From: Deltaproteobacteria bacterium
Lineage (GTDB): Bacteria > Myxococcota > Kuafuiibacteriia > Kuafuiibacteriales > Kuafuiibacteriaceae
Direction of reading: 5' to 3'
NCBI GenBank assembly: GCA_040218735.1
Contig: JAVJQW010000022.1
Location: 96,001 to 160,000, forward strand
DNA length: 64,000 nt
Each line of letters opens with the position of its first letter. The stretch's first letter is position 1. A program made the translations under genes and the position numbers. The notes under the pieces were generated by a model, which worked only from the letters and a program-made list of their open reading frames with translations, ran no database searches and had not been told where the DNA came from. Below, one piece after another: positions 11,365 to 37,521 of the stretch.

Positions 11365-12828
11365 ATGGCGCAAACCAGCGGCAACCGCCGAACCAGAAAA
11401 TCCGAGGATGAGCATATGACGGGTGAGGGCACCGAAGCACCACGCCGTGGGGGCAAGAAGCGTCGTTCGACGCGTCAGAACAAGCGGCAGGACACCGGCA
11501 ACGGCAACGGCGCCGCCTACGACGAGGATGTGGACGAGATGGCCGCTTCCGCCCCGGCGGATGGGGACGGCCCCGGCCGCATGAACCTCAAGGAGCTCAA
11601 GGAGAAACGTATCTCCGAGCTCACCCGCATGGCCCGCGACATGGGCGTCGAAGGCGCGGCGGGGATGCGGAAGCAGGAGCTGATCTTCGCGGTGCTCAAG
11701 GAGCACGCGGCCCGACGCGGGACGATCTACTCCGAGGGCGTGCTCGAGTGCCTATCCGACGGATTCGGCTTCTTGCGCTCGCCCGACTACAGCTACCTCC
11801 CGGGCCCCGACGACATCTACGTCAGCCCCTCTCAGCTCCGCCGCTTCAACCTCCGCACTGGAGACACGATCAGCGGCCAGATTCGCCCCCCGAAGGACAA
11901 CGAGCGCTACTTCGCCATGCTGAAGGTGGAGAGCGTCAACTTCGAGGCGCCCGAGGTCGCGCGGGACAAGATCCTGTTCGACAACCTGACGCCCCTGTAC
12001 CCGCAGGCGCGCCTGAACCTCGAGCACAAGGGCGACAACTACTCCACGCGCATCATCGACCTGCTCACGCCGATCGGTAAGGGCCAACGCGCCCTCATCG
12101 TGTCGCCGCCGCGCGCCGGTAAGACGGTGCTCCTGCAGGACATCGCGCACGCCATCAGCGCCAACCACCCCGAGGTGTGGCTGATGGTGCTGCTGATCGA
12201 CGAGCGTCCGGAGGAAGTGACGGACATGGAGCGCTCCGTCGACGGCGAGGTCGTCAGCTCGACCTTCGACGAGCCGGCCTCCCGGCACGTCCAGGTCGCC
12301 GAGATGGTCATCGAGAAGGCCAAGCGCCTCGTGGAGCACGGACGCGACGTCGTCATCCTCCTCGACTCGATCACCCGCCTCGCGCGCGCCTACAACACGG
12401 TGATTCCGCCGTCGGGCAAGATCCTCTCCGGTGGTGTCGACGCCAACGCGCTGCACAAGCCGAAGCGTTTCTTCGGCGCCGCGCGCAACATCGAAGAGGG
12501 TGGCTCGCTCACGATCATCGCCTCGGCGCTGGTCGACACCGGCAGCCGCATGGACGAGGTCATCTTCGAGGAGTTCAAGGGCACCGGTAACTCCGAGATC
12601 CACCTCGACCGCAAGCTCATGGAGAAGCGCATCTTCCCGTGCCTCGACATCAACAAGTCGGCGACGCGTAAGGAAGAGCTCCTCCAGCCGCCGGACGTGC
12701 TCAACCGCGTCTGGATCCTCCGTCAGCTGCTGCACCCGCTGAACCCGATCGACTCGATGGAGTTCATGCTCAGCAAGCTGCGCCCGACGAAGGCCAACCA
12801 GGAGTTCCTGGACTCGATGAACAGCTGA
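11365..12828 (+). CDS. rho: Transcription termination factor Rho (start 11365 or 11416)
   Basis: [52 protein letters not shown] and FEEFKGTGN motifs. Confidence 0.98.
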
Positions 12829-13008
12829 CGGCGTCGGCCGTCGCTCCCCTCACGGCTCGCGGACATCGCCGCACGCGTCGAACGTGACGTGCGCGGCGAT
12901 CCCGCACCCACGACTTCCCGTCCAGCTTCTTGGCCACCCACACGTCGACGAGTTCGACGGGGCCGCCCTGCGCCCATTCAGACGGTCGTGGGTCGCGCTG
13001 AACGTCGC

Positions 13009-13050
13009 TGAACAATTCGATCGAAGTCGTTTGAACAATTCGTTCAAACG
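13009..13050. promoter_or_regulatory. Putative transcription-factor operator upstream of the CARDB lipoprotein gene
   Basis: Perfect inverted repeat CGTTTGAAC-N5-GTTCAAACG (13028-13050). Direct repeat TGAACAATTCG at 13009 and 13032. Confidence 0.5.
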
Positions 13051-13120
13051 GGCGCGCGTTCGTCGCTCACGCCGAGCCTCCTCCGTCGGCACGCCTCCTG
13101 CTGAGGGCGCACTCGGGAGG

Positions 13121-16100
13121 ATGCACTTGCACAAGTCGAAACCGTTCACATTCTTGCTCGGCGCCCTGTTGGTCGGCGTCGGTTGTTCCAACGAACAGGA
13201 CGCGACCGGGGTGAAGGACGACGCGATCGTCTACCAACCGAACCTCGTCGTCACGGCGCTCGAGACGCCCTACTCCGTCGCGCCCTACAACCCGATCGAC
13301 CTGACCGTCACCGTCTGTAACCAGGGCAACGACTGGGCGTCGAACAGCGACACTCTCCTCGTCGTCTCCACCGACACCACGATCACCTCGGCCGACACCT
13401 GGATCACCAGCGTCCCCACGAACAGCCTGGCCCCCGGACAGTGCGACACGCAGTCCGTCTCCTATCCGCTCCCTCCCCTGATGGACGGCGCCTATTACAT
13501 CGGCGCGATCGCGGACGAGTCGGGCTTCGTCATCGAGTCCGACGAGACCGACAACACCCTCGCGAGCGACATCATCGGCATCGGCTACGGCCCCGACCCG
13601 GTCGTCACCGCGATTTCCGCCCCGCCGAGCAGCGCGGACGGGCTCCCCGTCGTCGTCACCGTCTGCAACCGCGGGACGGATCCGGCCGGCGGCGTCGACC
13701 TCACGCTCTACCTTTCGACCGACACCACCATCGAGGACTACGCGTCGAACCCCATGTCGCCCGACTTCTTCCTCAGCGGCGACTACATCTCGAACCTCTA
13801 CCCCGGTGAGTGCACCGACCTCACGATCAACGGCTGGGTCGGCGGCCTCCCGACCGGCGCCTACTACATCGGCGCCGTCGTCGATGAGTGGAACTTCACG
13901 ACCGAGCTGATCGAGTCCAACCAGGTCACCGTCGACGGCCCCATCGGCATCGGCTGGGGACCCGACCTCGTCACCACCGCCGTCGACGCGCCCGCCGCGA
14001 CCGACGGCTACTTCGACGCCACCGTCACCATCTGCAACGTCGGCACCGACATCAGCTACGGCGCGGACGCCTCGCTCTACCTCTCCGAGGACACCGTGAT
14101 CGAGTCGCCGATGACGAACCCGATGACGACCGACATGCCGATCGGCGGCGTCACCGTCAGCTTCCTCGCCCCCGGACAGTGTGAAGACGTGACGCAGAGC
14201 TTCTGGGCCCCGACCGGCCTCGACGCGCCGTACATCGGCGTCCTCACCGACGAGTTCAACACCGTCGCCGAGCTGATCGAGAGCAACAACACGTTCGTCG
14301 GCGACCGCATCGGCGTCGGCTACGGCCCGGACATCGTCGTCGAGACCCTGACGTACCCGCCGAGCGCGGACGGGATGTTCTCGATCGTCGTGCGCGCCTG
14401 CAACCAGGGCACCGACTACACCAGCGGCTTCAACGTCGACGTCTACGCTTCGACCGACGCGACCATCGAAGGCACCTTCGCGAGCCCGTACGGCGACTAC
14501 CCGCTGGCCGGCGCCTACTTCAGCTCGCTGTACGCCGGCCAGTGCGCGCAGCAGACGGTCCAGGCCTACCCGCCGGGCCTCTTCGGACCGCACTACATCG
14601 GCGCGATCGCCGACGAGGGCGCGTCGGTCCTCGAGCTCAACGAGTACAACAACGTCTACGTCGGCGCGCCGATGGGCTTCGGCTACGGCAGTGACCTCGT
14701 CGTCTCCTCGGTCGTCGTGCCTCCGAGCGCGGACGGCCAGTTCGAGGTCGACGTCACCGTGTGCAACCAGGGCACCGCGCAGGCTTCCTACACGGACGTC
14801 GAGCTGTACCTGTCGTCGGACCTCGTCCTCTCCACGGGGCCGAGCGGATCGGACTTCCCGATCGGCGGCACCAGCTTCGCGACGCTCTACCCGATGGCCT
14901 GCGCCACGCAGTCGGTGATCGCGAACGTGTACGGCAACACCGGCCCGTACTACGTCGGCGCGATCGTCGATCCGTTCGACAGCGAGCAGGAGCTCATCGA
15001 GACCAACAACGAAGCCTTCTCGGGCATCTTCGGCGTCGGCTACGGCCCCGACCTCGTCGTCACCGCGATCGACGCGCCGCCGAGCACGGACGGTCAGTTC
15101 TCCGCCACGATCACCGTGTGTAACCAGGGCACCGCGTCCTCCTCGTCGACCGACGTCGAGCTGATCCTCACGCTCGACGACGTCATCGAGACGTACTTCG
15201 GCAACCCGTACACGCAAGACTTCCCGGCCGGCGGCGCGCCCATCCCGACGCTCAACCCCGGTCAGTGCACGAACGCCGCGATCAACGGCTACGCGCCCGC
15301 ACCGTCGCCCGCGCACTACTTGGCCGCGATCGTGGATCCCTACGACTCGATCCCCGAGCTCGTCGAATCCAACAACGATTTCCTCGGCGACCTGATCGGT
15401 ATCGGCTACGACGCCGACCTCATCGTCAGCGCGATCGCCGCCCCGCCGAGCGCGAACGGCAACGCGACCATCACCGTCACCGCCTGCAACCAGGGCACCG
15501 CCCCCTCCTCCTCCTTCGACGTCGAGCTGTACGTCTCCGAGGACCAGATCATCGAGGGGTACACGATGAGCGGCCCGCCGGTGGACACGCCGATCGGTGG
15601 CGCGTACCTGACGTCGCTCAACCCCGGCGCGTGTGCCTCGCAGGACGTGCTCGTGTGGCTCCCCGCCCCGGACGCGGCGTGGTACCTCGGCGCGATCGCG
15701 GATCCGTTCGACTCCCAGATCGAGCTGATCGAATCCAACAACACGTTCCTCGGCCCGCGCATCGGCCTCGGCTCCGGGCCCGACCTCGTCGTTCAGTCCG
15801 TCACCGGCCCGGCGAGCGCCAACGGCCCGTTCGACGTCGTCGTCACCGTCTGCAACCAGGGCACGACGTTCGCCGGCAACGCCGACGTGGAGATCTACGC
15901 GAGCGAGGACCTGAGCATCCAGACCGTGCAGCAGAACCCGTTCACCAACGACTTCCCGATCGCGTGGGCGAACTTCTCGAACCTGCAGCCCGGCGCGTGC
16001 GGGACGCAGACCACGCAGGCCGCGCCGCCGCCGTGGACGGGCGCAGGGTACCTCGCCGGCATCGTCGATCCCTACGAGGCGGTGACCGAGCTCGACGAGG

Positions 16101-17773
16101 AGAACAACGTCACGTTCGACGGCGTCGTCGGCTTCGGCAACGGCCCCGACTTCATCGTCACCGCGATCTCGGGTCCGCCGAGCTCGACGGGCACGTTCAA
16201 CCTCGCGTGGACCGTGTGTAACCAGGGCACGCAGGCCGGCGCGACCGACGTGACGCTCTACCAGTCCGACGACGCCGTGATCACCTCCGACATGCCGTAC
16301 CCCGGCGCGGGCGACACGATCATCGGCAGCATCAACGTGAGCATCAACGCCGACGACTGCGCGAGCGGCACGCTGCCCGTGAGCACGTTCGGCCAGGGCG
16401 CGTACTACCTCGGCGCGATCGCGGACGAGTACGACACGACCGTGGAGCTCATCGAGACCAACAACACGTTCGTCGGCGGCCAGATCGGCATCGGCAACGA
16501 TCCCGACCTCGTCGTCTCGAGCGTCGCGGGTCCGCCGAGCACGACCGGCTCGTTCACGATCGACTACACGGTCTGCAACCAGGGCACGACGTCGAGCCCC
16601 GGCACCGACGTGAACTTCTACCTCGTGACGGGCGAGACGCTCGTGGGTCAGGCCAACAACCCGTACGGCGATCCGCCGGTCGCGAACGACTTCGTGCCGA
16701 CGCTCCCCGCGGGTGACTGTCACATCGCGCTCACCCCGGCGTACGCGCCGCAGCCCGGTACCTATCGAATCGGCGCGATCGTCGACGAGTGGTCAGCGGT
16801 GTCGGAGCTCATCGAGACGAACAACGGGCTGCTCGGCCCGCAGATCGGCGTCGGCAACGGCCCCGACCTGATCGTCGAGAGTGTCACCGGTCCGGCCGTC
16901 ACCGGCCCGGGCGCGTACCCGGACTTCGTGGTGCGCGTGTGCAACCAAGGGACCGCGGGCAGCACCGCGACGAACGGCACGTTGTACCTGTCGAACGACG
17001 CGACGATCGAGCCGTTCGACGCGATGCTCACGCAGTACCCGGTGAACAACATCGCGACCGGCGCGTGTGAAGACGTCCTCGTGCCCGCGCCGATGCCGCC
17101 GTACACCGGTAGCTTCTTCGTCGGTGCGATCGTGGACGACTTCGACAGCGTCCCCGAGCTCATCGAGACGAACAACGCGAGCAGCGGCACGCCGATCGAG
17201 CTCGCGGCGATGTTCTGCGGGGACGGCAGCGTCGACCCCGCGACCGAGGAGTGCGACGACGGCAACGGCATCAGCGGCGACGGCTGCAGCGCGACGTGTT
17301 TCGTCGAGCACACCGTGTGGCAGGAGAACCAGTCCGGCCCCAGCCAGGGGCCGTACAACTGGAACTACGCGATGGGCTTCCACTTCACGCCGACGCGCGA
17401 CGGCGAGATCACGCAGCTGGGTGGCTACTTCTACGGTGGTCCGAAGACGGTGCGTCTGTTCGAGCGCGACACGGGTGTGCTCCTCGCCGAGACCCAGGTG
17501 GCGGGCCAGGCGAACGTCGGGCAGTTCAGCTACGGCGACATCACGACGGTGCCGGTGACGGCGGGGACACGTTATACGGTGGCGGTCTACCTCGCGGGGA
17601 CCGGCGGGACGCGCACGATCGTGAACCCGCGCTTCCCGGTGGCGTACGGCGACATCACGATCGACGCGTCGACGTACATCTATACGGGCTCGAACCCCGA
17701 CCGCCGGCCGACCAACAGCATCCCACGCGTGATGTACGGCCAGGCGGACATTCGGTACGCACCGACCGAGTGA
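13121..17773 (+). CDS. Large surface lipoprotein: 11 CARDB-like repeats, myxobacterial Cys-rich repeat, DUF4082-like C-terminal domain
   Basis: Lipobox LLVGVGC. Eleven units of PDLVV..TVCNQG..YxGAIxD..ELxExNN, then CGDG..EECDDGN..SGDGCSATC and MGFHFTP. GGAGG precedes the start. Confidence 0.85.
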   Translation: MHLHKSKPFTFLLGALLVGVGCSNEQDATGVKDDAIVYQPNLVVTALETPYSVAPYNPIDLTVTVCNQGNDWASNSDTLLVVSTDTTITSADTWITSVPTNSLAPGQCDTQSVSYPLPPLMDGAYYIGAIADESGFVIESDETDNTLASDIIGIGYGPDPVVTAISAPPSSADGLPVVVTVCNRGTDPAGGVDLTLYLSTDTTIEDYASNPMSPDFFLSGDYISNLYPGECTDLTINGWVGGLPTGAYYIGAVVDEWNFTTELIESNQVTVDGPIGIGWGPDLVTTAVDAPAATDGYFDATVTICNVGTDISYGADASLYLSEDTVIESPMTNPMTTDMPIGGVTVSFLAPGQCEDVTQSFWAPTGLDAPYIGVLTDEFNTVAELIESNNTFVGDRIGVGYGPDIVVETLTYPPSADGMFSIVVRACNQGTDYTSGFNVDVYASTDATIEGTFASPYGDYPLAGAYFSSLYAGQCAQQTVQAYPPGLFGPHYIGAIADEGASVLELNEYNNVYVGAPMGFGYGSDLVVSSVVVPPSADGQFEVDVTVCNQGTAQASYTDVELYLSSDLVLSTGPSGSDFPIGGTSFATLYPMACATQSVIANVYGNTGPYYVGAIVDPFDSEQELIETNNEAFSGIFGVGYGPDLVVTAIDAPPSTDGQFSATITVCNQGTASSSSTDVELILTLDDVIETYFGNPYTQDFPAGGAPIPTLNPGQCTNAAINGYAPAPSPAHYLAAIVDPYDSIPELVESNNDFLGDLIGIGYDADLIVSAIAAPPSANGNATITVTACNQGTAPSSSFDVELYVSEDQIIEGYTMSGPPVDTPIGGAYLTSLNPGACASQDVLVWLPAPDAAWYLGAIADPFDSQIELIESNNTFLGPRIGLGSGPDLVVQSVTGPASANGPFDVVVTVCNQGTTFAGNADVEIYASEDLSIQTVQQNPFTNDFPIAWANFSNLQPGACGTQTTQAAPPPWTGAGYLAGIVDPYEAVTELDEENNVTFDGVVGFGNGPDFIVTAISGPPSSTGTFNLAWTVCNQGTQAGATDVTLYQSDDAVITSDMPYPGAGDTIIGSINVSINADDCASGTLPVSTFGQGAYYLGAIADEYDTTVELIETNNTFVGGQIGIGNDPDLVVSSVAGPPSTTGSFTIDYTVCNQGTTSSPGTDVNFYLVTGETLVGQANNPYGDPPVANDFVPTLPAGDCHIALTPAYAPQPGTYRIGAIVDEWSAVSELIETNNGLLGPQIGVGNGPDLIVESVTGPAVTGPGAYPDFVVRVCNQGTAGSTATNGTLYLSNDATIEPFDAMLTQYPVNNIATGACEDVLVPAPMPPYTGSFFVGAIVDDFDSVPELIETNNASSGTPIELAAMFCGDGSVDPATEECDDGNGISGDGCSATCFVEHTVWQENQSGPSQGPYNWNYAMGFHFTPTRDGEITQLGGYFYGGPKTVRLFERDTGVLLAETQVAGQANVGQFSYGDITTVPVTAGTRYTVAVYLAGTGGTRTIVNPRFPVAYGDITIDASTYIYTGSNPDRRPTNSIPRVMYGQADIRYAPTE

Positions 17774-27031: not shown

Positions 27032-29131
27032 TTCGTCCGCTTCGATTTTCTCCAACGCCGCGCGGAGCGCGGTCTCGTCGTCTACGTCGCGCGCCTCGTG
27101 CGCCGCACGAATCGCGACGACGTGCGCACGGATCCGAATCGATCGCGCCTGCGACGGACCGAGGAGCGGCGCCACGACGCGACGCGCGAGCGCGGCGTCC
27201 TCGTTCACGAGGCGCGCCCCGATCGTCAGCCGCGCGGAGCGCACCGCGAAGCTCGACGTCCCCGCGGCCTCCAGCGTCTGCACCGCGAACGCAAAGCGCC
27301 CCGCCTCCACCGCGAGCTGCGCCGTCAGCACGGCGCGCTCCGGACCGAGCCGTCCGGCACCGAAGCGACGCTGCGACGACGCGAGCAACGCGAGCGCCCC
27401 CTCGAGGTCCCCGGCGGCGCCGAGCATCTCCGCGCGACGCCAGAGCGCCTCCTCCGCGAGGGCCGGCGAGGTCGACGCGTTGGCGTAGGCATCGGCGGCG
27501 GCCGCGAAGTCATTCGCGCGGCGGCGCTTGTCGCCGAGCACGAGCCAGGCCTTCGGCGTGCGCGGGGGGGCGTCGGCGTGCTCAGGAGAGGCGCCATCCG
27601 CGGGGTCCGTGATGGAGTCGCCGGGTTCGTCCTTGCGTGGTCCGTTGTCCGCAGTGGCGTCGTCGCGCGGAGCGCCGTCCGCGGACCGCGTGGCGGGTTC
27701 ATCGCGCTGTTCCCCACGCGAAGCGCCGTCGGCGGAGCGCGCGGTGGGCGCGTCGCGCTGTGCCCCACGCGAAGCGCCGTCCGCGGACCGCGTGGCGGGT
27801 TCATCACGTTCGTCGTCTTGCGGAGCGCCGTCCGCCGCGCCCGCGGACGGTCCGTCACGCGCGCCCTCTGCCGACGTGCGCGCGTCGGCGGGGGAGCCGT
27901 CGGCGCGCGCGCCGGGCGCTCGTGCGGAGGGGTCGTCCGAAGGCCGCGCGGCCGCACCCTCGCGCGCGCTCCGGGCTTCGGCGGACGCGCGCGCGCTGGG
28001 CGCGTCGCGTGCGGCCGCGGCCCCGCCAACCTTGGCGTTCACCGCGGGCGTATCGCGTGCGGGGGGAGCTTCGGTGGAAGCGTCATCCGCAGCGTGCGGA
28101 CTGGAGCCATCGCGCGCGGCCCGCGCTTCGGCCGACGTGCCTGCCGAGCGCACCGCCGACGCTTCGCGCGCCGCCCGAGCTTCGTCCGAAGCGCGCACAT
28201 GGGGAGCGTCGCCTGAAGGGAGCGCGCCGTCCGTGGAGCGCGCACCCGACGCGCCGCGTGAGGCCGGCGCCCCGTCCGCGTCGCGCGTTCGTTCGTGCCG
28301 TGCGGATGCGTTCATCGCAACGTGGTCGCCCACGTCATCGGCCGCCCTCGCGCCGGCCGGGTCGGTGCCCTCGGAGCGCGCCGTCGTCGTTCCGACTTCG
28401 TCACGCGCCGCAGACGCAGCGTCGCTCGCCCCCGCGACGTCGCGCGGGATCCGGATCGACTGCCGCGCCGCCACGCGATGGAGCCGCGCGCCCTCGGTCG
28501 CCTCGACGACGCCCTCCTCCACCGACAGCTCCGTGCGTGCGGCCAACACGCGCACGGTGAAGCGCGTGCCGACGACGCGGATCGTCGTGTGCGGCGTCGA
28601 CACCCAGAACCCACCGTCCCGCGGCGCGACGTCGAAGCGCATCGTCCCGAGCAGCACCCGGACCTCGGAGCGCGCGTCCAGGTCGACGACGAACGTCGCG
28701 CCGTCCGGCGCAGCCAAGGCGGCGTCGGCGAAGACGAGCTTGGTCCCCGCCTCGGCCACGAGCTCGGCCCGCAACGGCAACGCACCCTCCACCGCCGCGC
28801 CGGCGTGGAGAACGCGCCCCTGCACCACCGGCGACGAAGGCCACAGGATCAACGCAGCGCACAGCGCCACCGCGGCCGCGGCGACGGGCCACGCGATCCA
28901 CGTCGGCCGACGCCGCGACACCTTCGCGTCCACGCCGAGCCGCAGCGCGCGCAGCTGATCGGCGTCGGGCTCGCGGGCGTTCTCGCGGAGGATCGTGCGC
29001 GCGTCGTGCAACACCTCGAAGGCGCGCTCACACTCGACACACTTCGCCGCGTGGCGCGTGAACGACGCGCGCTCCTCCTTGGCGAGGAACTCGAAACGGG
29101 CGGCCTCCACGGTGCGCGGGCAACGGCTCAC
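27029..29131 (-). CDS. Anti-sigma factor: ZAS motif, TM helix, FecR domain, low-complexity linker, TPR-like C-terminus
   Basis: HxxxCxxC (HAAKCVEC), hydrophobic segment and FecR motif VVGTRFTV..SVEEGVV. GTG start overlaps the sigma stop (GTGA). Linker has 17-aa repeats RDEPATRSADGASRG. Confidence 0.8.
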   Translation of the reverse strand: MSRCPRTVEAARFEFLAKEERASFTRHAAKCVECERAFEVLHDARTILRENAREPDADQLRALRLGVDAKVSRRRPTWIAWPVAAAAVALCAALILWPSSPVVQGRVLHAGAAVEGALPLRAELVAEAGTKLVFADAALAAPDGATFVVDLDARSEVRVLLGTMRFDVAPRDGGFWVSTPHTTIRVVGTRFTVRVLAARTELSVEEGVVEATEGARLHRVAARQSIRIPRDVAGASDAASAARDEVGTTTARSEGTDPAGARAADDVGDHVAMNASARHERTRDADGAPASRGASGARSTDGALPSGDAPHVRASDEARAAREASAVRSAGTSAEARAARDGSSPHAADDASTEAPPARDTPAVNAKVGGAAAARDAPSARASAEARSAREGAAARPSDDPSARAPGARADGSPADARTSAEGARDGPSAGAADGAPQDDERDEPATRSADGASRGAQRDAPTARSADGASRGEQRDEPATRSADGAPRDDATADNGPRKDEPGDSITDPADGASPEHADAPPRTPKAWLVLGDKRRRANDFAAAADAYANASTSPALAEEALWRRAEMLGAAGDLEGALALLASSQRRFGAGRLGPERAVLTAQLAVEAGRFAFAVQTLEAAGTSSFAVRSARLTIGARLVNEDAALARRVVAPLLGPSQARSIRIRAHVVAIRAAHEARDVDDETALRAALEKIEADE

Positions 29132-29676
29132 CGCTGGCCTCCCATCTTCTCGTAGAGCGCCATCAGCTCCTTGCGCGCGTGGTACAGGCGCGTGCGCACC
29201 GTCGCCTCGTTGATGTCGAGCGCCTCCGCGACCTCCTTGCCGCTGAGCCCTTCGACTTCGTAGAGCACGTACACCACGCGCTTCTTCGCGGGGATCTGCA
29301 TCAGGCAACGCCACACGCGCATCAGCTCGGCGCGCTCCGCGACGGTTCGCTCGACGTCCGGGCTCCGATCGACGATCGGCTCCGCCTCCACCGCCTGCTT
29401 CAGGCGACGACGGCGGCGCCAGGAGCGCAGGTGCATCAGCACCGTCCGCGTCGCGATGCCGTAGAGCCAGGTCTCGACCTTCGCGTCGCCCCTGAACCGC
29501 GGCAACGCGCGATGCGCGCCGAGGAAGACGTCCTGTGCGATGTCCTGCACGTCTGCGTCACTCGCCCCCGGGCCGAGCAGGCTCGCGACCATTCGATACA
29601 CGCGTGCACCGTGTTGCCGAACCAGCTGGTCGATCGTCAGCGTCGACCCCCCAAGTTCGGTCACCTCCTGGTGCAT
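29128..29676 (-). CDS. ECF RNA polymerase sigma factor
   Basis: DVQDIAQDVF, FRGDAKVETWLYGIA and region 4 EGLSGKEVAEALDINEATVRTRL. Confidence 0.93.
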   Translation of the reverse strand: MHQEVTELGGSTLTIDQLVRQHGARVYRMVASLLGPGASDADVQDIAQDVFLGAHRALPRFRGDAKVETWLYGIATRTVLMHLRSWRRRRRLKQAVEAEPIVDRSPDVERTVAERAELMRVWRCLMQIPAKKRVVYVLYEVEGLSGKEVAEALDINEATVRTRLYHARKELMALYEKMGGQR

Positions 29677-29725
29677 GGGGCTCGTTATCGAGCGGGTCAA
29701 ACCGGACTCGCTACCCTTCGGGTGA

Positions 29726-29757
29726 CCGTGGGTTGCCGGCACCGCCCCTCATGTTCA
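29726..29757 (-). promoter_or_regulatory. Putative ECF sigma autoregulatory promoter (copy 2)
   Basis: TGAACA-N9-GTGCCGGCAACCCACGG about 50 bp upstream of the sigma start. Confidence 0.7.
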
Positions 29758-29783
29758 CGGCCGGGGCGATTTTTTTCGACCCG

Positions 29784-30683
29784 TCAGTAGAGCGCGACCT
29801 GGACCCCGACGGTCGCGAAGGGAACGACCGGCCCGCTGACCCACCCCGCACCCGAATACCCAGGCGGGACGGCCACTTGCACGGAGGGGACCCGGAGCTG
29901 CGCGCCGGCCGCCGCGCGGAAGAAGAGGCGGTCACGCCACACCTCGAGCTCGAGCGCGCCGCCGACCCGCACCAGCGCCTCCCAAGCGACGACGCGCTGC
30001 GTCGGCGCGAGATCGGCGAACGTGAGGGGCTCCGCCTCGGCCGTGACCCGCTGCGCCCCGACCCGCACCGCGCCGCGCACCCGCACGACCGTCCACTGCG
30101 CGAACGTCCATGCGCCGTCGAGTCCGAGCGCCAGGGCCTCGGCGTCGCCGGCGATCCCGGTGCTCTCGCGTCGGCAACACACGTGGCCGACCGCGCCGCC
30201 GACGACGGCGAGCGAAGCGCGTCCGATGTCGACGCCGACGCCGAGCTCGAGGCCGAGCTGCGGTTGTCGAGGCCGCCACCACAGCGTCGTGAGCACGTCG
30301 GTCGTCAGGTGCACGCCGAACGTCCTCGGCGCGGGCGGGAGCTCGAAGGGTTCGTCGAGCGCGCGCACCGTCGCCACCGCGCGCGTGGTGAGGAGCGTGG
30401 CGACGCGGAGCGCCTGCTCAGGTTGGCCGGACGGCACGCGGCGCTCGGCGAGCGTGGCGTCGACCGTCGACACCCGGACGAGGAACGTGTCGGCGACGCG
30501 GCGGACGACGACACGCACGCGCGCGAGCCCCGCGCGGGTGAACTCGACGTCACCGATCTCCAGGCTCAACGCACGCGTGAGTGCCTCGGAACGAGAACCG
30601 GCATCGACGGCGATCGAAATTGGGGCGGCGATCGCGGGTGTCGCGAAGCAGAGCGACAGCAGTGTCCCGAAAACGAACCGCAC
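29784..30683 (-). CDS. Hypothetical secreted protein, possibly with a C-terminal beta-barrel-like region
   Basis: Signal peptide VRFVFGTLLSLCFATPAIA and amphipathic beta-strand-like C-terminal half ending in Tyr. Co-oriented upstream of the ECF module. Confidence 0.6.
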   Translation of the reverse strand: MRFVFGTLLSLCFATPAIAAPISIAVDAGSRSEALTRALSLEIGDVEFTRAGLARVRVVVRRVADTFLVRVSTVDATLAERRVPSGQPEQALRVATLLTTRAVATVRALDEPFELPPAPRTFGVHLTTDVLTTLWWRPRQPQLGLELGVGVDIGRASLAVVGGAVGHVCCRRESTGIAGDAEALALGLDGAWTFAQWTVVRVRGAVRVGAQRVTAEAEPLTFADLAPTQRVVAWEALVRVGGALELEVWRDRLFFRAAAGAQLRVPSVQVAVPPGYSGAGWVSGPVVPFATVGVQVALY

Positions 30684-30743
30684 CGTGTCGCGCCTTTTAA
30701 CACTCACTCGAAGATCGAGCGCACTCGTCCGAAGAAACGATTG

Positions 30744-31052
30744 ATGCGGATCGCTTCGTCCACTGCCGCGCTCGTCAAGCCGCCCTGCGAGGACTGCGGT
30801 CCTCACGGCGCCAAAGCCAAGGAGGAGCGGGCCCTCGAAGAGATCAAGAACGACAAGGCGATCGAGCGCGTCCGCGAGAAGCGCACCGAGCAGTCGGAGG
30901 GCGTGGCGCCCGCGACCGCGGCGGAGGCCTCGGCGGCCCTCGCCTCCCTGACGCGCGAGGACAGCGTCGAGCCGACGGTCAGCGCGGGCCAGGTCGAGTC
31001 GGCGTACCGTCCGGAGGAGACGCAGGCGGACTCGTTCTCGACCGTCGCCTGA
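30744..31052 (+). CDS. Small hypothetical protein with CxxC motif
   Basis: MRIASSTAALVKPPCEDCGPH..., 102 aa, GC-rich third positions like neighbouring genes. Confidence 0.55.
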   Translation: MRIASSTAALVKPPCEDCGPHGAKAKEERALEEIKNDKAIERVREKRTEQSEGVAPATAAEASAALASLTREDSVEPTVSAGQVESAYRPEETQADSFSTVA

Positions 31053-31058
31053 GCAGCA

Positions 31059-32032
31059 GCGTGTGTCAGGTCGCCGGGAGGGGAGTGCCCAGGAACGGCT
31101 GCGCTTTTGGCGTCGGCCGGGGACGCTCTTCCGGTCAGAAGCCGTTCGTCTCGCCGGGTGTGGCCCCTTCACTTCGCTGACTGCCCAGGCGGGCGAGCCG
31201 AACTGATTCCCTCCAGGGCGTCCCCGTCCGCCGCCATCGCTCCGCCTGTCGAGTTTGCCGCTCACCAGCGATCCAATGAATGGAGTGACCCGGGGGAGCT
31301 TCGACCCAACGCACCGCAGATGCGACGCGCTGCCCAGGCGCCCACTCCGCTTTCGACATCGGGCGCGGCGACCTCGGTTCGGCTTGCCGGGCGACCGTCC
31401 GGCGCGGAGATCGCGCTGCGACGCTCGGCAGTACCTGGGTGCGTCGGCGGGGCGGTCCGGCTGTCGGAATCGCCGCGCCCGATGTCTGCGCTCCGCTCGA
31501 CGAGTTGCCTGATTCCAACGCGTGCATCGGCGCGATCTAGCGCCAGTACGAGATCACGATCGAGAAGGCGCCGGGCTCGGGCAACGTGAATAGCGGAGCG
31601 CAGGCGGCGGGCGCGCCGATTCCGAAAGCCGAGCCGCTCCGCCGTGGGCGACAGGCCTTGCCGATCGACGGCGATGGGGTCTCCGCGTCGAACGGACGCC
31701 CACCTCGCCGAACCGAGGTCGGCGTGCCCGCCGCCGGAGCGGAGCGATCACCTGGGCAACGTGTCGAACGAGCACAATCGGTGGAACGAGGCGCCCCGGG
31801 TCACCCACCTCATCGGATGGCCGAGCGAAGGCAACTCGACACGCGGAGCGCAGGCGGCGGGCGGGGACCTCTCCGTAGGGAATCAGTTCGGCTCGCCCGC
31901 CTCGGTCATCAGCGAAGCCGAGGGGCCCCACCCGGCGAGACGAACGGCTTCTGACCGGAGGGGAGGTCCCCGGCCGTCGCCAAACGCGAAGCCGGACCTG
32001 GGCACTCCCCCCCGCGGCGATCCGACAAACGC
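31059..32032. repeat. ~970-bp imperfect palindrome (long inverted repeat centred at ~31545)
   Basis: Arms align end to end by eye. Perfect 31-bp block 31130-31160 vs 31929-31959; apex GATCT (31534) pairs with AGATC (31551). Confidence 0.9.
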
Positions 32033-32034
32033 CC

Positions 32035-33423
32035 CTAGCTGTACGTCCGGCCGCGCTTGATGAACTGGCCGCGGCCCGGCTTCGCGAGGAAGGTGTTGTT
32101 CTCGACGACCTTGTCGCCGCGCGAGAGGACGCAGCGCGGGCCGCCCTTGACGACCTTCCCGGGGAACGCCGCGTAGTCGACCTTCATGTGGAGGTTCTCG
32201 AGCGACAGCTCCATCTCGCGCTCGGGATCCCACACCACGATGTCGGCGTCGGAGCCGATACCGATGCAGCCCTTCCGCGGGTACATGCCGAAGATCTTCG
32301 CGGGCGCCGTGGACGTGATCTCCACGAAGCGGTTCCGCGAGATCTCCCCGCGCTGCACGCCCTCCCAGAGGAGGTACAGGCGCGTCTCGATGCCGGGCAT
32401 GCCGTTCGGGATCTTCGCGAAGCTGTCCTTGCCGAGCTCCTTCTGCCCCTTCATGCAGAACGGGCAGTGGTCGGTCGCCACGACCTGCAGGTCGTAGTTC
32501 CGAAGGCCACGCCACAGGTGCTCGTGGTGGTGCTTCGGGCGAAGCGGCGGCGTGCAGACGTACTTCGCGCCGTCGAACTCGTTGCCCTCCGTCCCTCGCA
32601 GCGCGTCCTCGTCGAGGAACAGGTACTGCGGGCACGTCTCGGCGTACGTCATCAGCCCGCGGTCACGCGCTTCCGCGACCTTCTCCAACGCACGCTGCGC
32701 CGACAGGTGCACGATGTACACCGGCACGTTCGCCATCTCCGCCAACGCGATCGCGCGCTCCGTGCCGGTCGCCTCTGCGACCTCGGGGCGGGTGAGGGCG
32801 TGGTAGATCGGCGCCGTCTTCCCCTCCGCGAGCGCGCGCTCGATCAACACGTCGAGCGGCGCGCCCGTCTCGGCGTGCATCGTCACCAGCGCGTCGATCT
32901 CCGACGCCCGCAGCATCGCGCGGAAGATCTTGTCGTCCTCCAGCAGGAACACGCCGGGGTACGCCATGAACATCTTGAAGCTCGTGACACCCTCGTCGCA
33001 GATCGACTTCATCGCCTCCAGCTCGCTCGGCGGTACGTCCGTCGCGATCATGTGGAAGCCGTAGTCGACGCCGGCCTTGCCCTCGGCCTTGCCGTGCCAC
33101 GTATCGAGCGCCTCCTTCAGCGTGCCGCCCTTCTTCTGGATCGCGAAGTCGACGATCGAGGTCGTCCCGCCGCACGCCGCGGCGATCGTGCCGCTCTCGA
33201 AGTCGTCCACCGAGGACGTCCCGCCGAACGGCATGTCGAGGTGCGTGTGGGCGTCGATGCCGCCCGGGAACACGTAGCACCCGGTGGCGTCGATCGTCTC
33301 CGCGTCCGCAGGCCCGGTGCCGGGCTGAATGATGCCGGTGATCTTGTCCCCGTCGATGATGACGTCGGCCGCGTACTCGTCCGACGCGGTGAGCACGGTT
33401 CCACCTACGATCTTCTTGGTCAC
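32035..33423 (-). CDS. hydA: Dihydropyrimidinase (D-hydantoinase)
   Basis: PGGIDAHTH, GVTSFKMFMAY, HAE, VHLS, ETCPQYL, ATDHCPF and IPNGMPG motifs. Confidence 0.95.
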   Translation of the reverse strand: MTKKIVGGTVLTASDEYAADVIIDGDKITGIIQPGTGPADAETIDATGCYVFPGGIDAHTHLDMPFGGTSSVDDFESGTIAAACGGTTSIVDFAIQKKGGTLKEALDTWHGKAEGKAGVDYGFHMIATDVPPSELEAMKSICDEGVTSFKMFMAYPGVFLLEDDKIFRAMLRASEIDALVTMHAETGAPLDVLIERALAEGKTAPIYHALTRPEVAEATGTERAIALAEMANVPVYIVHLSAQRALEKVAEARDRGLMTYAETCPQYLFLDEDALRGTEGNEFDGAKYVCTPPLRPKHHHEHLWRGLRNYDLQVVATDHCPFCMKGQKELGKDSFAKIPNGMPGIETRLYLLWEGVQRGEISRNRFVEITSTAPAKIFGMYPRKGCIGIGSDADIVVWDPEREMELSLENLHMKVDYAAFPGKVVKGGPRCVLSRGDKVVENNTFLAKPGRGQFIKRGRTYS

Positions 33424-33460: not shown

Positions 33461-34453
33461 TCAAAGCTTGCCCAGCGACTGCAGCACCCGATCGATCTCG
33501 TCGAGCGCGAGGTCCGCCGCGGACGAAGACGGCGGCGGCGTCACCCCCGGCGGGGGCGAGACGGGCGCGCCCGGCACGATCGTCGGCAGGTGGCTCTCAC
33601 CCGGATGCAGCTTGAAGTCGTGGTCGGTGATCGGCTCGTCGGTCGGCAACCCGAGGTTCGACGCGACCTGCCGCAGCAAGTCCTCGCCGATCGTCTCCTC
33701 GCGCGACAGCGCCCCCTCCAGGAGCGCGTTGTCGCAGACCGTGTTGATCAAACGCGGCACGCCACCCGACGCCTTGTGGATCAGGTTCATCGCCCCGCGG
33801 TCGAAGATCTGCCGCGGCGAGCCCGCCATCCGCAGGCGGTGCCGTGTGTACGACTCCGTGGAAGCGAGGTCGAACGGCTGCAGCCGCACCCGAAGCGCCA
33901 CGCGCTGCGCGAGCGGCGGGTCCTGCTTCAGGTTGTCCTCGATCTCCGGCAGCCCGAAGAAGACGAATGACAGCAGCTTCCGCTCCGGGACCTCCAGGTT
34001 GAGCAGCCCGCGGAACTCCTCCATGAGCTCCTGCGTGTCGAGCATCTGGGCCTCGTCGATCAGGACGACGGCCTTCTTCCCGGACTCGTAGATCTCGACC
34101 AGGCGCCGGTACAGCTGCGACAGCAGCACCAGCTTGTCCTTGTCCGGAGCCTCCACGCCGAGCTGGATGGCGATGCGCCGGAGCAGCCAGTCCGACGTGA
34201 TGTCGCGGTGGATGATGACGAGGAGCGCGGCCTCGTACTCCTTCTCGTCGAGGGCGTCGAGGAGGCGGCGGGCGAGGGTGGTCTTCCCGGCGCCGATGTC
34301 GCCGACCAGGATCGCGAGCCCCTTCATCGCGTTGAGCGAGAACATGAGCCGGACGAGCGCTTGGCTGTGCTGAGCGGAGTCGTAATAGAACCGGCTGACC
34401 GGCGCGTTCGAGAAGGGTTCTTGGTTCAGCTCGTAGAAGTCGAGGTAGTCCAT
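33461..34453 (-). CDS. ExeA-family AAA ATPase
   Basis: GDIGAGKTT, LIDEAQ and SGGVPRLINTVCDNALL motifs. Confidence 0.88.
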   Translation of the reverse strand: MDYLDFYELNQEPFSNAPVSRFYYDSAQHSQALVRLMFSLNAMKGLAILVGDIGAGKTTLARRLLDALDEKEYEAALLVIIHRDITSDWLLRRIAIQLGVEAPDKDKLVLLSQLYRRLVEIYESGKKAVVLIDEAQMLDTQELMEEFRGLLNLEVPERKLLSFVFFGLPEIEDNLKQDPPLAQRVALRVRLQPFDLASTESYTRHRLRMAGSPRQIFDRGAMNLIHKASGGVPRLINTVCDNALLEGALSREETIGEDLLRQVASNLGLPTDEPITDHDFKLHPGESHLPTIVPGAPVSPPPGVTPPPSSSAADLALDEIDRVLQSLGKL

Positions 34454-34515: not shown

Positions 34516-37500
34516 CTACAAGTACGAGATCTTGTTCTTCTTCGGGGCCGGATCGTCTTCCGGGCCATCCGACGTGTAGACGCCGTTCGACGGGATGTCG
34601 GTCGAAAGACTCACACCCATTTCGCGCAGACGGTCGCCGACGCCGCGGTGGTCCGGGTCGTCGCGCGCACAGTCGTAGAACCACTGGACCGCCTCGTCGA
34701 GCGCGCCGGCCTCTGCGTGGGCGGCGCCGATCTCGTACTTGAGGTTCACCCGCGCGGGGCCCTCGGCGCCCGCGTCCATCGCCATCGTGAAGTAGTCGAT
34801 GGCGCGCTCGGGCTCGTTCTTGTCCATGAAACACAGCCCGATCATCTCGAGCGACGTGATGCGTCGACGCTCCGAGCCGAGCGCGCCCTCGAATTCGCGG
34901 ATCGCGTCGTCGGTGCGCCCGAGCTCCTTGAATGCCATGCCCTGGTCGTAGTGGTCCTCGGCGGTCGTCTCGTCGTCGGCCGACCCCGCGGAGAGCGCGC
35001 CGAAGGCGTCGTCGAGCTCGTCGCCGCCGATGTCGCCGCCTGCGGCGAAGGCGTCGGCGGGCTCGTCGTCCGACGCATCGAAGGGGCCGCCCCCGGTGAC
35101 GTCGTCGATGTCGTCGTCCGCGATGTCGATCGGGCTCGCGTCCAAGCGATCGAGGGTCTCGTCCTCGACGTCGTCGTCGTCGTCGGCGGGGATCGACGCG
35201 AGCATCTCCTCGGCGCGCGCGTACCCCGGCGACTTGTTCAGCACCGCCTGGATCGCCTCGCGCGCCTCCGAGTACAGCTCGGTCTGCAGGAGGAACTCGG
35301 CTTCGTCGAGCTCGTCCTCGAGGTCCTCGTCGACCTCGGACGCGGCTTCCTCCGCCTTGGGCGTGGCTTCCTCCGCCTCCGGAGGATCGTCGAGGTACAG
35401 CTCGTCATCGTCGTCGTCCGGGAGGAGCGATGCGTCGGTGGAGGGCTCGTCCGTGAACTCCGGCTCCACGCGCTCACGGAGGCCGACCGGGGACGCCAAC
35501 GACAGCGCCTCGAGGTCCTCGGGGAGCGCCGCCTGCGTGACGCCTTCGTCGCCCCCCTCCCACGGCGCCTCGTTGTCCGCCATCTCCTCGCTCAGGATCA
35601 GCGGGTGCCGATCGGTGACGTTCTTGACGGGCGTCTCGGTCGGCTCGTCGAGGCTCACCACCTGCGAGTTCGTGACGAGCGGAATGTCGTCCGACATCGA
35701 GCTCGGCGCAGGGATGATCAGATCCTCGCTGTGCGCCGATGGCGGGAGCTGGAGCGCCGCCGGCTCGTCGGGCGGCTCCGGCATGTCGTCGAAGCCGGAG
35801 AAGTCGGGCGCTTCGTCGATTAGCGGCACGCCGCGCTGGAACGCCGCGACGCCCTCCTCGGAGATGTCGACCTCGAACTCGGAGCTGTCCTCCATGATGT
35901 CGATGGAGTCGAGGTCCTCTTCGTGGAGCGGAGCCGGGATCGCGCCGGGTAGCCCGCCCGCGACGAGCGGGTGTCCGGGGGCGAGCGCGCGGAGATCTTC
36001 GCGCGCGGCGCTCAACGCGTCGACGTCGCCGCGCCGCGCGTGGATGTGCAGGACGTTGGCGATCGCCTCGGCGGCGCGCGCGTTGCTGCCCATCGAGACG
36101 TAGATGTCGCGCATCTTGTAGTAGGCACCGACGTTGTCCGGGTCGATGTCGAAGATCGCCCGCAGGTGGTCCAACGCTTTTTCGCGGAGGCCGTACTTGA
36201 TGTAGACGTCCGTCTCCGTGAGCACCTTGCCGATCTGGTCTCGGTCCGGCCCCGGCGAAGCCACGGCCCGCGCGGGGGGCGCCGTGGGAACCGCATCGAC
36301 GTAGAGCTCTTCGGGCTCGTCGAGGATCAGGACCTCGTCGTCGCTCGGCACCGCGACGTCCGTCGGCGGGAACCGCGCGGGCGGCTCCATCGACGGGCGC
36401 GGCGCGAGGGATGGCGCCATCGCGTCGGGCGCCATCACGTCGGGCATGGACGGCGGCGCCGGGCGCGGCGCCAGCGAGGGCGCGAACGACGGCGCGGAGG
36501 AGGGCATCAGGCTCGGTGCGTCGATGAGCTGCGCCTCGTGCAACACCTCCGGCTCCTCGATGGGTGCGGGCGTGAAGATCGGCTCCTCGAACGTGGGCGC
36601 GGGCGGCGCGGCGTCGGGGTGCGGCGTGCCGTCGAGGCCGAGCGCGTTGCGCGCTTCGGCGTCGTTCGGGTCGACCTCCAGGATCATCTGGCGCACGCCT
36701 TGCGCATCTTCCGGTCGGCCGGCTTCGTCGTAGATCCGCGCGAGCTCGCGGTACACGAAGACGGTCTTTTGCGTCTGCCCGAGATCGTTGAACGCCTGCG
36801 CGAGGAGGCGAAGGGTCTCGATGTCGCGCGGGTTCGCCTTGAAACACAGCTGCAGCTTCGCGAGGCCGCGCTTGGTGTCGCCGCGCTGCAGGTAGAGCTT
36901 CGCGAGGTCCATCACGATCGCGAGGCGGTTGGGCGCGTGGTAGACGAGGCGCTCCGCGACCTTGATGTAGTCGTCGATGCGCGCTTGCCCCTTGAGGATC
37001 TCCGCCGCGCGCTCGAACTGCTCGGCGGCCTTGTCGGTCATGCCCTCGCGCGAGTAGCTCTCCGCGAGCTTGATACGCGACGCGACGTTCTCGGTGTCGA
37101 GCTCGACCATCCGCTCGAGCACCTCGAGCGATTGTTTGGTCTCCCCCAGGTCGTCGTGGATGGAGGCCGCGACCTGGTACTGCTGCATCGCCTCGGATTG
37201 GAGGCCGAGGTGCTCGTACAGCTCCGCGAGCTTGAGGGTGACCGCGAGGTGCTTCGGCTCGTGTTTGAGGATCTGTTTGTAGACCGCGACGGCCTTCAGG
37301 AAGAAACCTTGCTCACTGTAGGACTCGGCGACCTGTTTGTAGACCTTGGTCGCGTTCTCGCGGTCGCCCTTCTTGGAGTAGACGTCGCCCAGCTTGAGCA
37401 GCGTACGCACGTCGCTCGGGTCGTCGGCGACGAGCTTCTGCAGCTCTTTGATCGCCCGATCCCATTGGCCCTTCGCGATGTACTTCTGGGCCGAGCTGAT

Positions 37501-37521
37501 GATTTTGTTCTTGTTGGCCAC
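34516..37521 (-). CDS. sgmX: SgmX-like TPR protein (type IV pilus activator in myxobacteria)
   Basis: N-terminal TPR array (NKNKII..KG.WDRAIKE..VAESYSEQGFFLKAVAVYKQIL), middle ETDVYIKYGL, acidic linker, C-terminal TPRs and KNKISYL end. Followed by an ExeA-like ATPase. Confidence 0.75.
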   Translation of the reverse strand: MANKNKIISSAQKYIAKGQWDRAIKELQKLVADDPSDVRTLLKLGDVYSKKGDRENATKVYKQVAESYSEQGFFLKAVAVYKQILKHEPKHLAVTLKLAELYEHLGLQSEAMQQYQVAASIHDDLGETKQSLEVLERMVELDTENVASRIKLAESYSREGMTDKAAEQFERAAEILKGQARIDDYIKVAERLVYHAPNRLAIVMDLAKLYLQRGDTKRGLAKLQLCFKANPRDIETLRLLAQAFNDLGQTQKTVFVYRELARIYDEAGRPEDAQGVRQMILEVDPNDAEARNALGLDGTPHPDAAPPAPTFEEPIFTPAPIEEPEVLHEAQLIDAPSLMPSSAPSFAPSLAPRPAPPSMPDVMAPDAMAPSLAPRPSMEPPARFPPTDVAVPSDDEVLILDEPEELYVDAVPTAPPARAVASPGPDRDQIGKVLTETDVYIKYGLREKALDHLRAIFDIDPDNVGAYYKMRDIYVSMGSNARAAEAIANVLHIHARRGDVDALSAAREDLRALAPGHPLVAGGLPGAIPAPLHEEDLDSIDIMEDSSEFEVDISEEGVAAFQRGVPLIDEAPDFSGFDDMPEPPDEPAALQLPPSAHSEDLIIPAPSSMSDDIPLVTNSQVVSLDEPTETPVKNVTDRHPLILSEEMADNEAPWEGGDEGVTQAALPEDLEALSLASPVGLRERVEPEFTDEPSTDASLLPDDDDDELYLDDPPEAEEATPKAEEAASEVDEDLEDELDEAEFLLQTELYSEAREAIQAVLNKSPGYARAEEMLASIPADDDDDVEDETLDRLDASPIDIADDDIDDVTGGGPFDASDDEPADAFAAGGDIGGDELDDAFGALSAGSADDETTAEDHYDQGMAFKELGRTDDAIREFEGALGSERRRITSLEMIGLCFMDKNEPERAIDYFTMAMDAGAEGPARVNLKYEIGAAHAEAGALDEAVQWFYDCARDDPDHRGVGDRLREMGVSLSTDIPSNGVYTSDGPEDDPAPKKNKISYL

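Follow-up and report, generated by a model that had tools for sequence, protein, structure and literature searches.

Why should nearly a kilobase of palindromic DNA persist between the 3′ ends of two convergent genes? In bacteria, palindromes of kilobase size are uncommon and tend to be unstable, and the question is raised here by a locus of a Deltaproteobacteria bacterium (Myxococcota, family Kuafuiibacteriaceae; GenBank assembly GCA_040218735.1, contig JAVJQW010000022.1, positions 96,001 to 160,000), in which an imperfect palindrome lies between a small upstream gene and hydA, the gene for dihydropyrimidinase. The whole stretch of 64,000 nucleotides (nt) is referred to as the window, and coordinates are counted from its first letter. 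Our answer, offered tentatively, is that the palindrome may be a tail-to-tail pair of diverged (~75% alike) copies of a discrete ~487-nt non-coding module that serves the 3′ ends of both convergent genes. Sequence comparison points in this direction through the anatomy of the element, the occurrence of an arm elsewhere, a conservation that is concentrated in two blocks and the stems, and changes by which the local stems stay paired.

A sequence-only reading of the window had described an imperfect palindrome that fills the intergenic region, and alignment confirms it as located. The two arms (31059-31545 and the reverse complement of 31546-32032) are identical in 370 of 494 columns (75%), with 14 gap columns; their global alignment scores 220 versus -52 ± 7.6 for 50 shuffles, and self-BLAST returns the palindrome as one match of 986 columns at 75.05%. 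The borders lie 6 nt past the upstream stop (TGA, 31050-31052) and 2 nt short of the hydA stop (32035-32037). Palindromy is not continued into either flanking gene, where flanks of 30-200 nt score like shuffles. Perfect blocks of up to 31 bp had also been reported and were recovered; the longest measure 31 and 26 nt (Table 1), and runs of at least these lengths among the arm mismatches have a chance probability of 0.0014. Arm identity per 40 columns is 80-90% in the outer 200 columns and 57-82% further inward. Of the 110 mismatches, 60 are transversions and 50 are transitions, and they cluster, with adjacent pairs numbering 35 versus 25 ± 3.8 expected (p=0.005). An assembly artefact is an unlikely source of the palindrome, because the arms diverge by 25%.

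The setting is unusual as well. Other convergent gene pairs in the window are separated, stop to stop, by ~4-38 nt (17773/17811, 20723/20738, 58863/58867), versus 982 nt for the gap that bears the palindrome, which is exceptional for this genome; the other apparent gaps in the window are coding, and the palindrome is the sole long non-coding stretch there. For comparison, 80 loci returned by a genome search with hydA were used, a set that comprises neither the source genome nor its close relative; the closest hydA among them (75% amino-acid identity) belongs to a Myxococcota metagenome-assembled genome (MAG), others to Haliangiales and Kofleriaceae. None of the 80 loci contains a homologue of the palindrome or a comparable palindrome, the best true palindrome in their 1.27 Mb scoring 182 versus 639 for the one described here, and a literature search found no paper on such palindromes in myxobacteria. 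As a separate observation, the locus L027, from an Acidobacteriota MAG, carries three mutually unrelated imperfect palindromes of ~230-250 nt with 70-77% identity (at 1180-1409, 6059-6297 and 9747-9996), one of which stops 4 nt short of that locus's hydA match.

Each arm is itself repetitive. Its units follow a general plan of TGCCCAGG, a GCTCCGC-like word, an imperfect hairpin of ~130 nt, GCGCTCCGC, 7-8 nt and GTTGCC. The units A and B of the left arm and the reverse complements of B′ and A′ of the right arm (Table 1) align colinearly at 67-73% mean column identity; A′ against B′, both reverse-complemented, scores 27 versus 12.8 ± 2.0 for shuffles (0 of 200 as high). Unit A is self-complementary over 133 nt (E=2e-7) and scores 163.8 bits with the covariance model R1, but is a training sequence of that model, while the hairpin of unit B has a 17/17-bp basal stem. 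The internal sub-repeat noted earlier is real; the by-eye count of two per arm is now replaced by four mapped copies, at 31225-31245 and 31476-31496 on the minus strand and at 31593-31613 and 31843-31863 on the plus strand, spaced 250-251 nt apart within each arm. Its 21-mer core, with up to 3 mismatches, finds 4 matches in the 64 kb, all in the palindrome, versus 0.05 expected, and GGCAAC-N5-9-GCGGAGCG finds 3 versus 0.01 expected; the motif has 0 matches in the 80 loci. Given the colinear homologous units and the four motif copies, therefore, each ~487-nt arm is, as judged from these alignments, an old tandem pair of homologous ~245-nt units A and B, and the palindrome is, on the same basis, a later inverted pairing of two such arms.

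This outcome comes close to one of the options that the sequence-only reading had listed, an old inverted duplication or two repeat copies, in that two diverged copies of a module were found. That reading had also named two copies of a known dispersed repeat placed head to head as an outcome that would speak against its own idea; the arms largely are such copies, except that they match no known repeat and showed no sign of high dispersal. BLAST, nhmmer and the covariance model found no other copy of the unit in the window, the next best match reaching 15.6 bits. That match lies in a large protein of secreted type (12821-17773; 11 CARDB repeats, DUF4082, DUF4215) and is taken as noise. Weak R1 matches of 20.7-27.5 bits were recorded in L035 (5779-5899), L060 (5326-5408), L054 (417-486) and L023 (9104-9280), which are loci of Acidimicrobiales, Actinomycetota and Acidobacteriota MAGs; these four non-myxobacterial matches were rejected as copies and put down to chance likeness of G+C-rich hairpins, their E-values being rough and large parts of the model being deleted in them. 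Two kinds of short repeat were seen at the units themselves: the 10-nt word GGGCAACGTG is a direct repeat at both ends of unit B′ (31579-31588, 31754-31763), and GCGGAGCG-like words of 6-8 nt flank each hairpin in direct orientation and mirrored order; these words belong to the duplicated unit and could reflect an old target duplication or chance.

Relatives of the palindrome were found through its spurious open reading frames (ORFs). The profile A1, made from two of these ORFs, was searched against 1.84 billion representative proteins and gave three matches only, P0004, P0005 and P0006; copy number from this protein search is a lower bound, since only ORFs in one frame class can be found. P0004 and P0006 are each reported once, on a contig of 11,524,684 nt, taken to be one contig, and each is without relatives of 135-436 amino acids (aa). 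P0006 (246 aa) runs from the left-arm B unit through the centre to the outer end of the right arm. In a non-coding frame, 48 of 52 residues of its left part agree with the left arm; its right part matches the right arm at 57-89% identity, and it ends with R-P-stop, the same as the palindrome sequence at the hydA stop. Judging by these matches, P0006 is a translation across the orthologous palindrome, whose placement beside hydA rests solely on the shared final R-P-stop.

P0004 (249 aa) begins with 116 residues that have no match in the window and continues with a B-A arm 88% identical to the left B; its homology to the palindrome ends at ~31541-31555, i.e., at the symmetry centre. When P0004 and P0006 are compared for codon compatibility, no offset is fully compatible; therefore, they are not the same DNA. 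At the best antisense offset they are ~97% compatible over ~215 nt of the B unit and at background level at the centre. The related genome thus holds the palindrome plus, elsewhere, a solitary arm that ends at the symmetry centre, and the arm is therefore a discrete, low-copy module. P0005, a more distant third sequence, has only a B-like unit of ~175 nt with other flanks, which retains 61% amino-acid identity in a non-coding frame. The fraction of codon-incompatible positions is 5.6% for the left arm versus the left part of P0006, 5.3% for the left arm versus P0004, 10.6% for the right arm versus the right part of P0006, and 12-19% for left versus right types, which gives approximate identities of ~92%, ~92%, ~84% and 72-82%, respectively; the solitary arm and the left arm of the related genome's palindrome are estimated to be ~95% identical. 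With the right arm as outgroup for dating the solitary copy, five shared differences divide into two specific to the copy in the present palindrome, one shared-derived and two ambiguous. An atlas search with the arm part of P0004 was uninformative (best score 0.80).

Divergence between the two genomes is unevenly distributed. In the right arm versus P0006, none of 101 positions of the B′ basal stem and the 31- and 26-nt blocks detectably differs, compared with 37 of 215 positions in the linkers and the B′ interior (Fisher p=2.7e-7); the blocks were defined from the source genome alone, and the comparison is thus independent of their choice. The B′ basal stem by itself shows 0 differences from P0006 at 44 positions, and the B basal stem shows no detectable difference from P0004 or P0006. 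The 31-nt block has none in the right arm of P0006 or in the 23 nt covered by P0004, while the 26-nt block has none in P0006 and two, at 31187 and 31190, in P0004, the solitary copy. Even at sites that would be third codon positions, the blocks do not vary. In the central linker, on the other hand, 6 of 27 and 6 of 29 positions detectably differ from P0006.

The palindrome could pair as a whole or within each unit. The unbranched rod fold that the sequence-only reading had expected of a transcript is obtained for both strands (-765 and -773 kcal/mol, z = -25 and -32), whereas the four unit folds sum to only ~-468 kcal/mol. Such a fold is expected of any inverted repeat of this size and, striking as it is, is no evidence for a rod-shaped RNA. 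G-U-compatible mismatches show no strand bias, in agreement with the earlier estimate (21 on the plus and 29 on the minus strand, of 110). The local stems behave differently. The basal stems of B and B′ are separated by four two-sided compensatory changes and one one-sided change, and A′ has the stem GACCTC/GAGGTC in place of the GACGC/GCGTC found in A and in the right arm of P0006; this two-sided change in A′ kept local pairing and broke pairing between the arms. In simulations that placed the observed number of differences at random on one copy, the observed self-complementarity was kept in 1 of 1000 runs from A to A′, 14 of 1000 from A′ to A, 4 of 1000 from B to B′ and 67 of 1000 from B′ to B. 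These comparisons suggest that local hairpins, and not the rod, are what is conserved, and they lend no support to the giant-rod RNA.

No coding function is apparent. The spread of G+C between codon phases is 0.04-0.24 within the palindrome versus ~0.55 in hydA, which bears out the earlier statement that no credible ORF is present. Arm mismatches fall 42/39/29 by position modulo 3, the six internal ORFs have no significant Pfam match (only SIP, E=0.006, under its cut-off), and no homologue was found for the 160-aa ORF of the palindrome. At the protein level the ORFs of the two arms share 41-48% identity, compared with 75% for the DNA. Thus, a protein-coding gene or a pair of pseudogenes is ruled out by codon phase, mismatch pattern, family search and low protein identity.

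Searches for known RNA and DNA elements were likewise negative. The Rfam search that the sequence-only reading had proposed matched no family, with 0 matches at gathering score in the window; at E up to 10 in 30900-32200, only the snoRNA sR58 appeared, at 13.8 bits versus a gathering score of 55. No tRNA or tmRNA was found in the window, no tandem repeats were found by TRF, and blastn versus 72,556 plasmids and 50,697 phages gave no match. A consensus scan inside 31059-32032 found no promoter-like site, sigma-70-like sites included, and no terminator-like site; the one terminator-like match recorded, versus a chance expectation of 1.1, sits in the upstream gene. A genome search with the alignment of the two palindrome ORFs gave 219 pattern matches, of which 0 were confirmed, a weak negative, as the patterns missed the most conserved blocks. 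The motif did not fit sigma-54 promoter spacing or that of extracytoplasmic function (ECF) sigma factors when compared by eye with consensus sequences, and likeness to a retron was likewise checked by eye and rejected.

The pair of modules lies between convergent genes, so each gene is followed, right after its stop, by the same series of hairpin A, linker and hairpin B; the upstream stop is 56 nt from the start of the A hairpin, and 54 nt separate the end of the A′ hairpin from the hydA stop. In the reading that we tentatively favor, the working parts would be the four local hairpins and not the 970-nt rod. They would form at the 3′ end of each convergent transcript and could there terminate or insulate in the manner of a hairpin cluster and protect that end; a single sequence-specific factor might bind them, too. 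On this reading, the palindromy of the whole would be a side effect of the same module serving both genes. Transcription of the array, termination or stabilisation by the hairpins, and any binding partner are inferred, the 3′-end role by analogy with REP-type elements and hairpin-cluster terminators.

Several points weigh against this reading. No consensus terminator or promoter was found within the palindrome, and on neither strand are the hairpins followed by U-runs. Comparisons with the related genome rest on translations of spurious ORFs, in which about two thirds of substitutions are detectable. Folding energies of the units are no better than those of shuffles (z +0.5 to -1.9), stability being unremarkable at 70% G+C, and the preference for the inward-reading strand, which folds slightly better in four of four units (by 1.6-6.5 kcal/mol), is weak (two-sided p ~0.13). 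Between genomes, two-sided changes at predicted hairpin pairs are not in excess (1 versus 1.05 expected; 0 versus 0.2). Moreover, according to PMC8794818, template switching during replication of quasi-palindromes can yield compensatory multi-base changes without selection. Finally, the inner end of the solitary arm appears to adjoin a coding region (residues 1-116 of P0004 have the look of a shadow ORF), which is no obvious match for a 3′-end role.

Table 1. Coordinates of the palindrome, its parts and the flanking genes in the window
Feature	Position	Strand	Description	Basis
Whole imperfect palindrome	31059..32032	.	974 nt; symmetry centre 31545/31546	Arm alignment; single self-BLAST match
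Left arm	31059..31545	+	L-type module; unit A then B towards the centre	Arm and unit alignments
Right arm	31546..32032	-	R-type module; unit A′ then B′ towards the centre	Arm and unit alignments
Unit A	31086..31259	+	TGCCCAGG; local hairpin 31108-31236; CGCTCCGC-N8-GTTTGCC	Inverted pair I7, 22 nt at 86%
Unit B	31331..31509	+	TGCCCAGG; local hairpin 31355-31486; GCGCTCCGC-N7-GTTGCC	Inverted pair I10, 17 nt at 100%
Unit B′	31580..31758	-	Hairpin 31598-31740; basal stem 16/17 bp	Inverted pair I8
Unit A′	31830..32004	-	Hairpin 31853-31981	Inverted pair I9
31-nt block	31130..31160 (partner 31929-31959)	.	Common to both arms, inside the A/A′ hairpins	
26-nt block	31187..31212 (partner 31877-31902)	.	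Common to both arms, imperfectly paired with the 31-nt block	
Conserved motif	31593..31613	+	GCGGAGCGCAGGCGGCGGGCG, with GGCAAC-N7 before it	Four copies
Central linker	31510..31579	.	70 nt; least conserved part	Same size as the inter-unit linkers (31260-31330)
Upstream gene	30744..31052	+	Small ORF, 102 aa; start codon chosen by the authors	Third-position G+C 0.88-0.93 in 30720-31079
hydA (dihydropyrimidinase)	32035..33423	-	Full length; profile positions 3-454 of 454	TIGR02033, 581 bits (cut-off 393); Pfam Amidohydro_1

The neighbourhood is ordinary chromosome, with ligA, rho, a sigma-54 activator, an ECF sigma factor and sugar-nucleotide genes, and no transposase, integrase, reverse transcriptase or RAYT-type gene was found by Pfam among the 25 ORFs of the window. 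The 102-aa upstream ORF has no Pfam or NCBIfam match. It is contained in a listed 505-aa ORF on the plus strand (29535-31052) that is a composite: the genes supported by codon phase are one on the minus strand at 29784-30683 and, on the plus strand, only a short one at ~30744-31052. The former has a signal-peptide-like start and no family, and adjoins the ECF sigma factor (29128-29748). Beside hydA lie an AAA ATPase of the XrtA/PEP-CTERM-associated type (33461-34453; 203 bits, cut-off 324.5) and a 1001-aa TPR protein (34516-37521), neither of which is found beside hydA in the 80 loci. Synteny with these loci is absent except for a weak ECF-sigma match in two of them.

Among other explanations, the one that survives best is a non-autonomous mobile or duplicative repeat, comparable to a MITE (miniature inverted-repeat transposable element), a REPIN or a fold-back element. 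The ~175-nt unit or the ~487-nt arm would then be selfish and without a host role, copied in inverted orientation beside a resident copy and to a second locus. We regard this as possible, if somewhat doubtful. It would account for the solitary arm elsewhere on the presumed same 11.5-Mb contig, with its boundary at the symmetry centre, for the lone B-like unit with other flanks in P0005, and for the way the palindrome fills a space between convergent genes that is elsewhere very small; the 6-8-nt direct repeats (GCGGAGCG on either side of B′) can be read as an old target duplication. A fold-back mobile element had also been among the earlier suggestions, but neither a target duplication, nor terminal inverted repeats of a single arm, nor a further copy in the window was found. 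No direct repeat was found flanking the 974-nt palindrome, and the terminal 60 nt of the single arms score 7 and 6 versus 7.0 and 7.3 for shuffles, a negative that holds for the arm only, since the basal stem of a single ~135-nt hairpin could count as terminal repeats. Copies are likewise missing from the 80 loci, plasmids and phages. Only three clusters were found among the 1.84 billion proteins, two of them (P0004 and P0006) without relatives in the length range given above, and no transposase, integrase or RAYT-type gene accompanies the palindrome. Conservation of the palindrome at its site in another genome, with constraint specific to certain positions, also speaks against a mobile repeat.

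The same constraint can be turned to a different explanation, a family of small structured RNA genes or of protein-binding DNA sites, in which each unit of ~175-245 nt is functional alone, two per strand and either converging on the centre or diverging from it, independently of the flanking genes. That the 31- and 26-nt blocks and the B basal stems do not vary between copies or genomes would suit such a family, as would the motif GGCAAC-N7-GCGGAGCG, which on the outward-reading strand precedes every hairpin at a constant distance, and the retention of the unit in the more distant third sequence; the low copy number suits a gene family better than a MITE. Set against this are the lack of a sigma-70-like promoter or intrinsic terminator in the region, the misfit of the motif with sigma-54 and ECF spacing, and the absence of any Rfam match beyond that of the snoRNA. 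On balance, we consider this explanation unlikely. A more elaborate and, in our opinion, rather unlikely possibility is that the hairpin unit represents a new, lineage-restricted family of functional structured elements in Myxococcota, with the 31- and 26-nt blocks forming a bulged helix for a dedicated factor. The array might then alternate between a state with four local hairpins and a single long duplex as the convergent transcripts, or a read-through transcript, meet, which would couple expression of the two genes or yield processed small RNAs.

Without any function, the palindrome could be a neutral relic, i.e., an old inverted duplication of a repeat-rich spacer whose hairpins have been reshaped only by template switching and gene conversion. 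The near balance of transitions and transversions, the lack of strand bias and the shuffle-like folding energies of the units are compatible with neutrality, and clustered mismatches fit multi-base mutational events; template switching, as described in PMC8794818, can make and repair stems without selection. Within-genome conversion does not, however, explain why differences between genomes avoid the stems and blocks, and only 14 of the 494 alignment columns are gaps after ~25% divergence. Bacterial genomes have a deletion bias, and 1 kb of useless DNA would normally be lost, whereas this palindrome has been retained in two genomes. A neutral origin of the whole is, we believe, distinctly unlikely. 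The leading idea of the sequence-only reading, a single rod-shaped ~970-nt RNA made from one strand and working as long double-stranded RNA, is highly improbable despite its stable unbranched folds, as any inverted repeat folds so, mismatches include 60 transversions and no G-U strand bias, the arms pair at only 75% overall and their inner half at 57-82% per 40 columns, changes in A′ and B favor local over global pairing, the arm also occurs alone, and orthologous arms diverge unequally (5.6% left versus 10.6% right), with no sign of maintained complementarity between left and right.

What is significant, in our opinion, is that at least two genomes of a myxobacterial lineage have retained the palindrome and that particular stems and blocks of it are constrained. 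If the 3′-end role proposed in the favored reading is true, the palindrome would exemplify a shared, sequence-conserved 3′ module in a high-G+C genome lacking classical terminators; if the unit is mobile, it would represent a new low-copy family of palindromic repeats in Myxococcota.

Several known systems can be compared with the element. Integron attC sites carry inverted core sites, 5′ RYYYAAC ... GTTRRRY 3′, at the base of a hairpin, and all have one orientation. An attC array was rejected: GGCAAC/GTTGCC are direct and not inverted at the unit ends, as is GGGCAACGTG at 31579 and 31754, the units occur in both orientations, and no integrase was found in the window. Long hairpin RNAs differ in that compensation is seen here in local and not in global pairing. 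MITEs and fold-back elements are resembled in that the palindrome folds back on itself, has no coding capacity and has a copy at a second locus in a related genome. It differs from them in that no direct repeat was found around the whole palindrome, the single arm has no terminal inverted repeats, and internal blocks are constrained; there is also no sign of many copies, with none further in the 64-kb window and at least two loci on the related 11.5-Mb contig.

Template-switched quasi-palindromes (PMC8794818) share with A′ and B the two-sided multi-base changes that restore complementarity of a stem. They represent, though, a mutational mechanism and not a type of element, one that explains pairing but not invariance of the same positions between genomes. 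With regard to termination, no intrinsic (Rho-independent) terminator, i.e., a stem-loop with a U-run, was found inside 31059-32032 by the consensus scan. Terminators that consist of hairpin clusters near stop codons and lack U-tracts have been proposed (PMC8355165). The present array is similar in that several hairpins start a few bases past a stop and no U-tract is needed, which is plausible in a G+C-rich genome; the hairpins described there are short, most of them lie no further than 80 nt from the stop, and under 15 nt separate one from the next, whereas those of the palindrome measure ~130 nt, stand 250 nt apart and have a conserved sequence.

A further resemblance is to the REP/BIME/REPIN and ERIC families: these, too, are non-coding, G+C-rich imperfect hairpins of ~100-130 nt, which lie outside genes, often at 3′ ends or between convergent genes, and occur clustered in alternating orientation. 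For REP-type elements, stabilisation of mRNA 3′ ends or termination of transcription has been suggested as a role. Those families number tens to hundreds of copies per genome, unlike the four units found here at one locus, with none elsewhere in 64 kb and only two or three loci detected in other genomes, and no gene for a RAYT (IS200-like) transposase of the kind associated with REPs and REPINs was seen among the 25 ORFs. The unit of the present palindrome is, furthermore, longer (175-245 nt with flanks), and it is set in an array of 974 nt with strict two-fold symmetry, which another genome has conserved at the same place.

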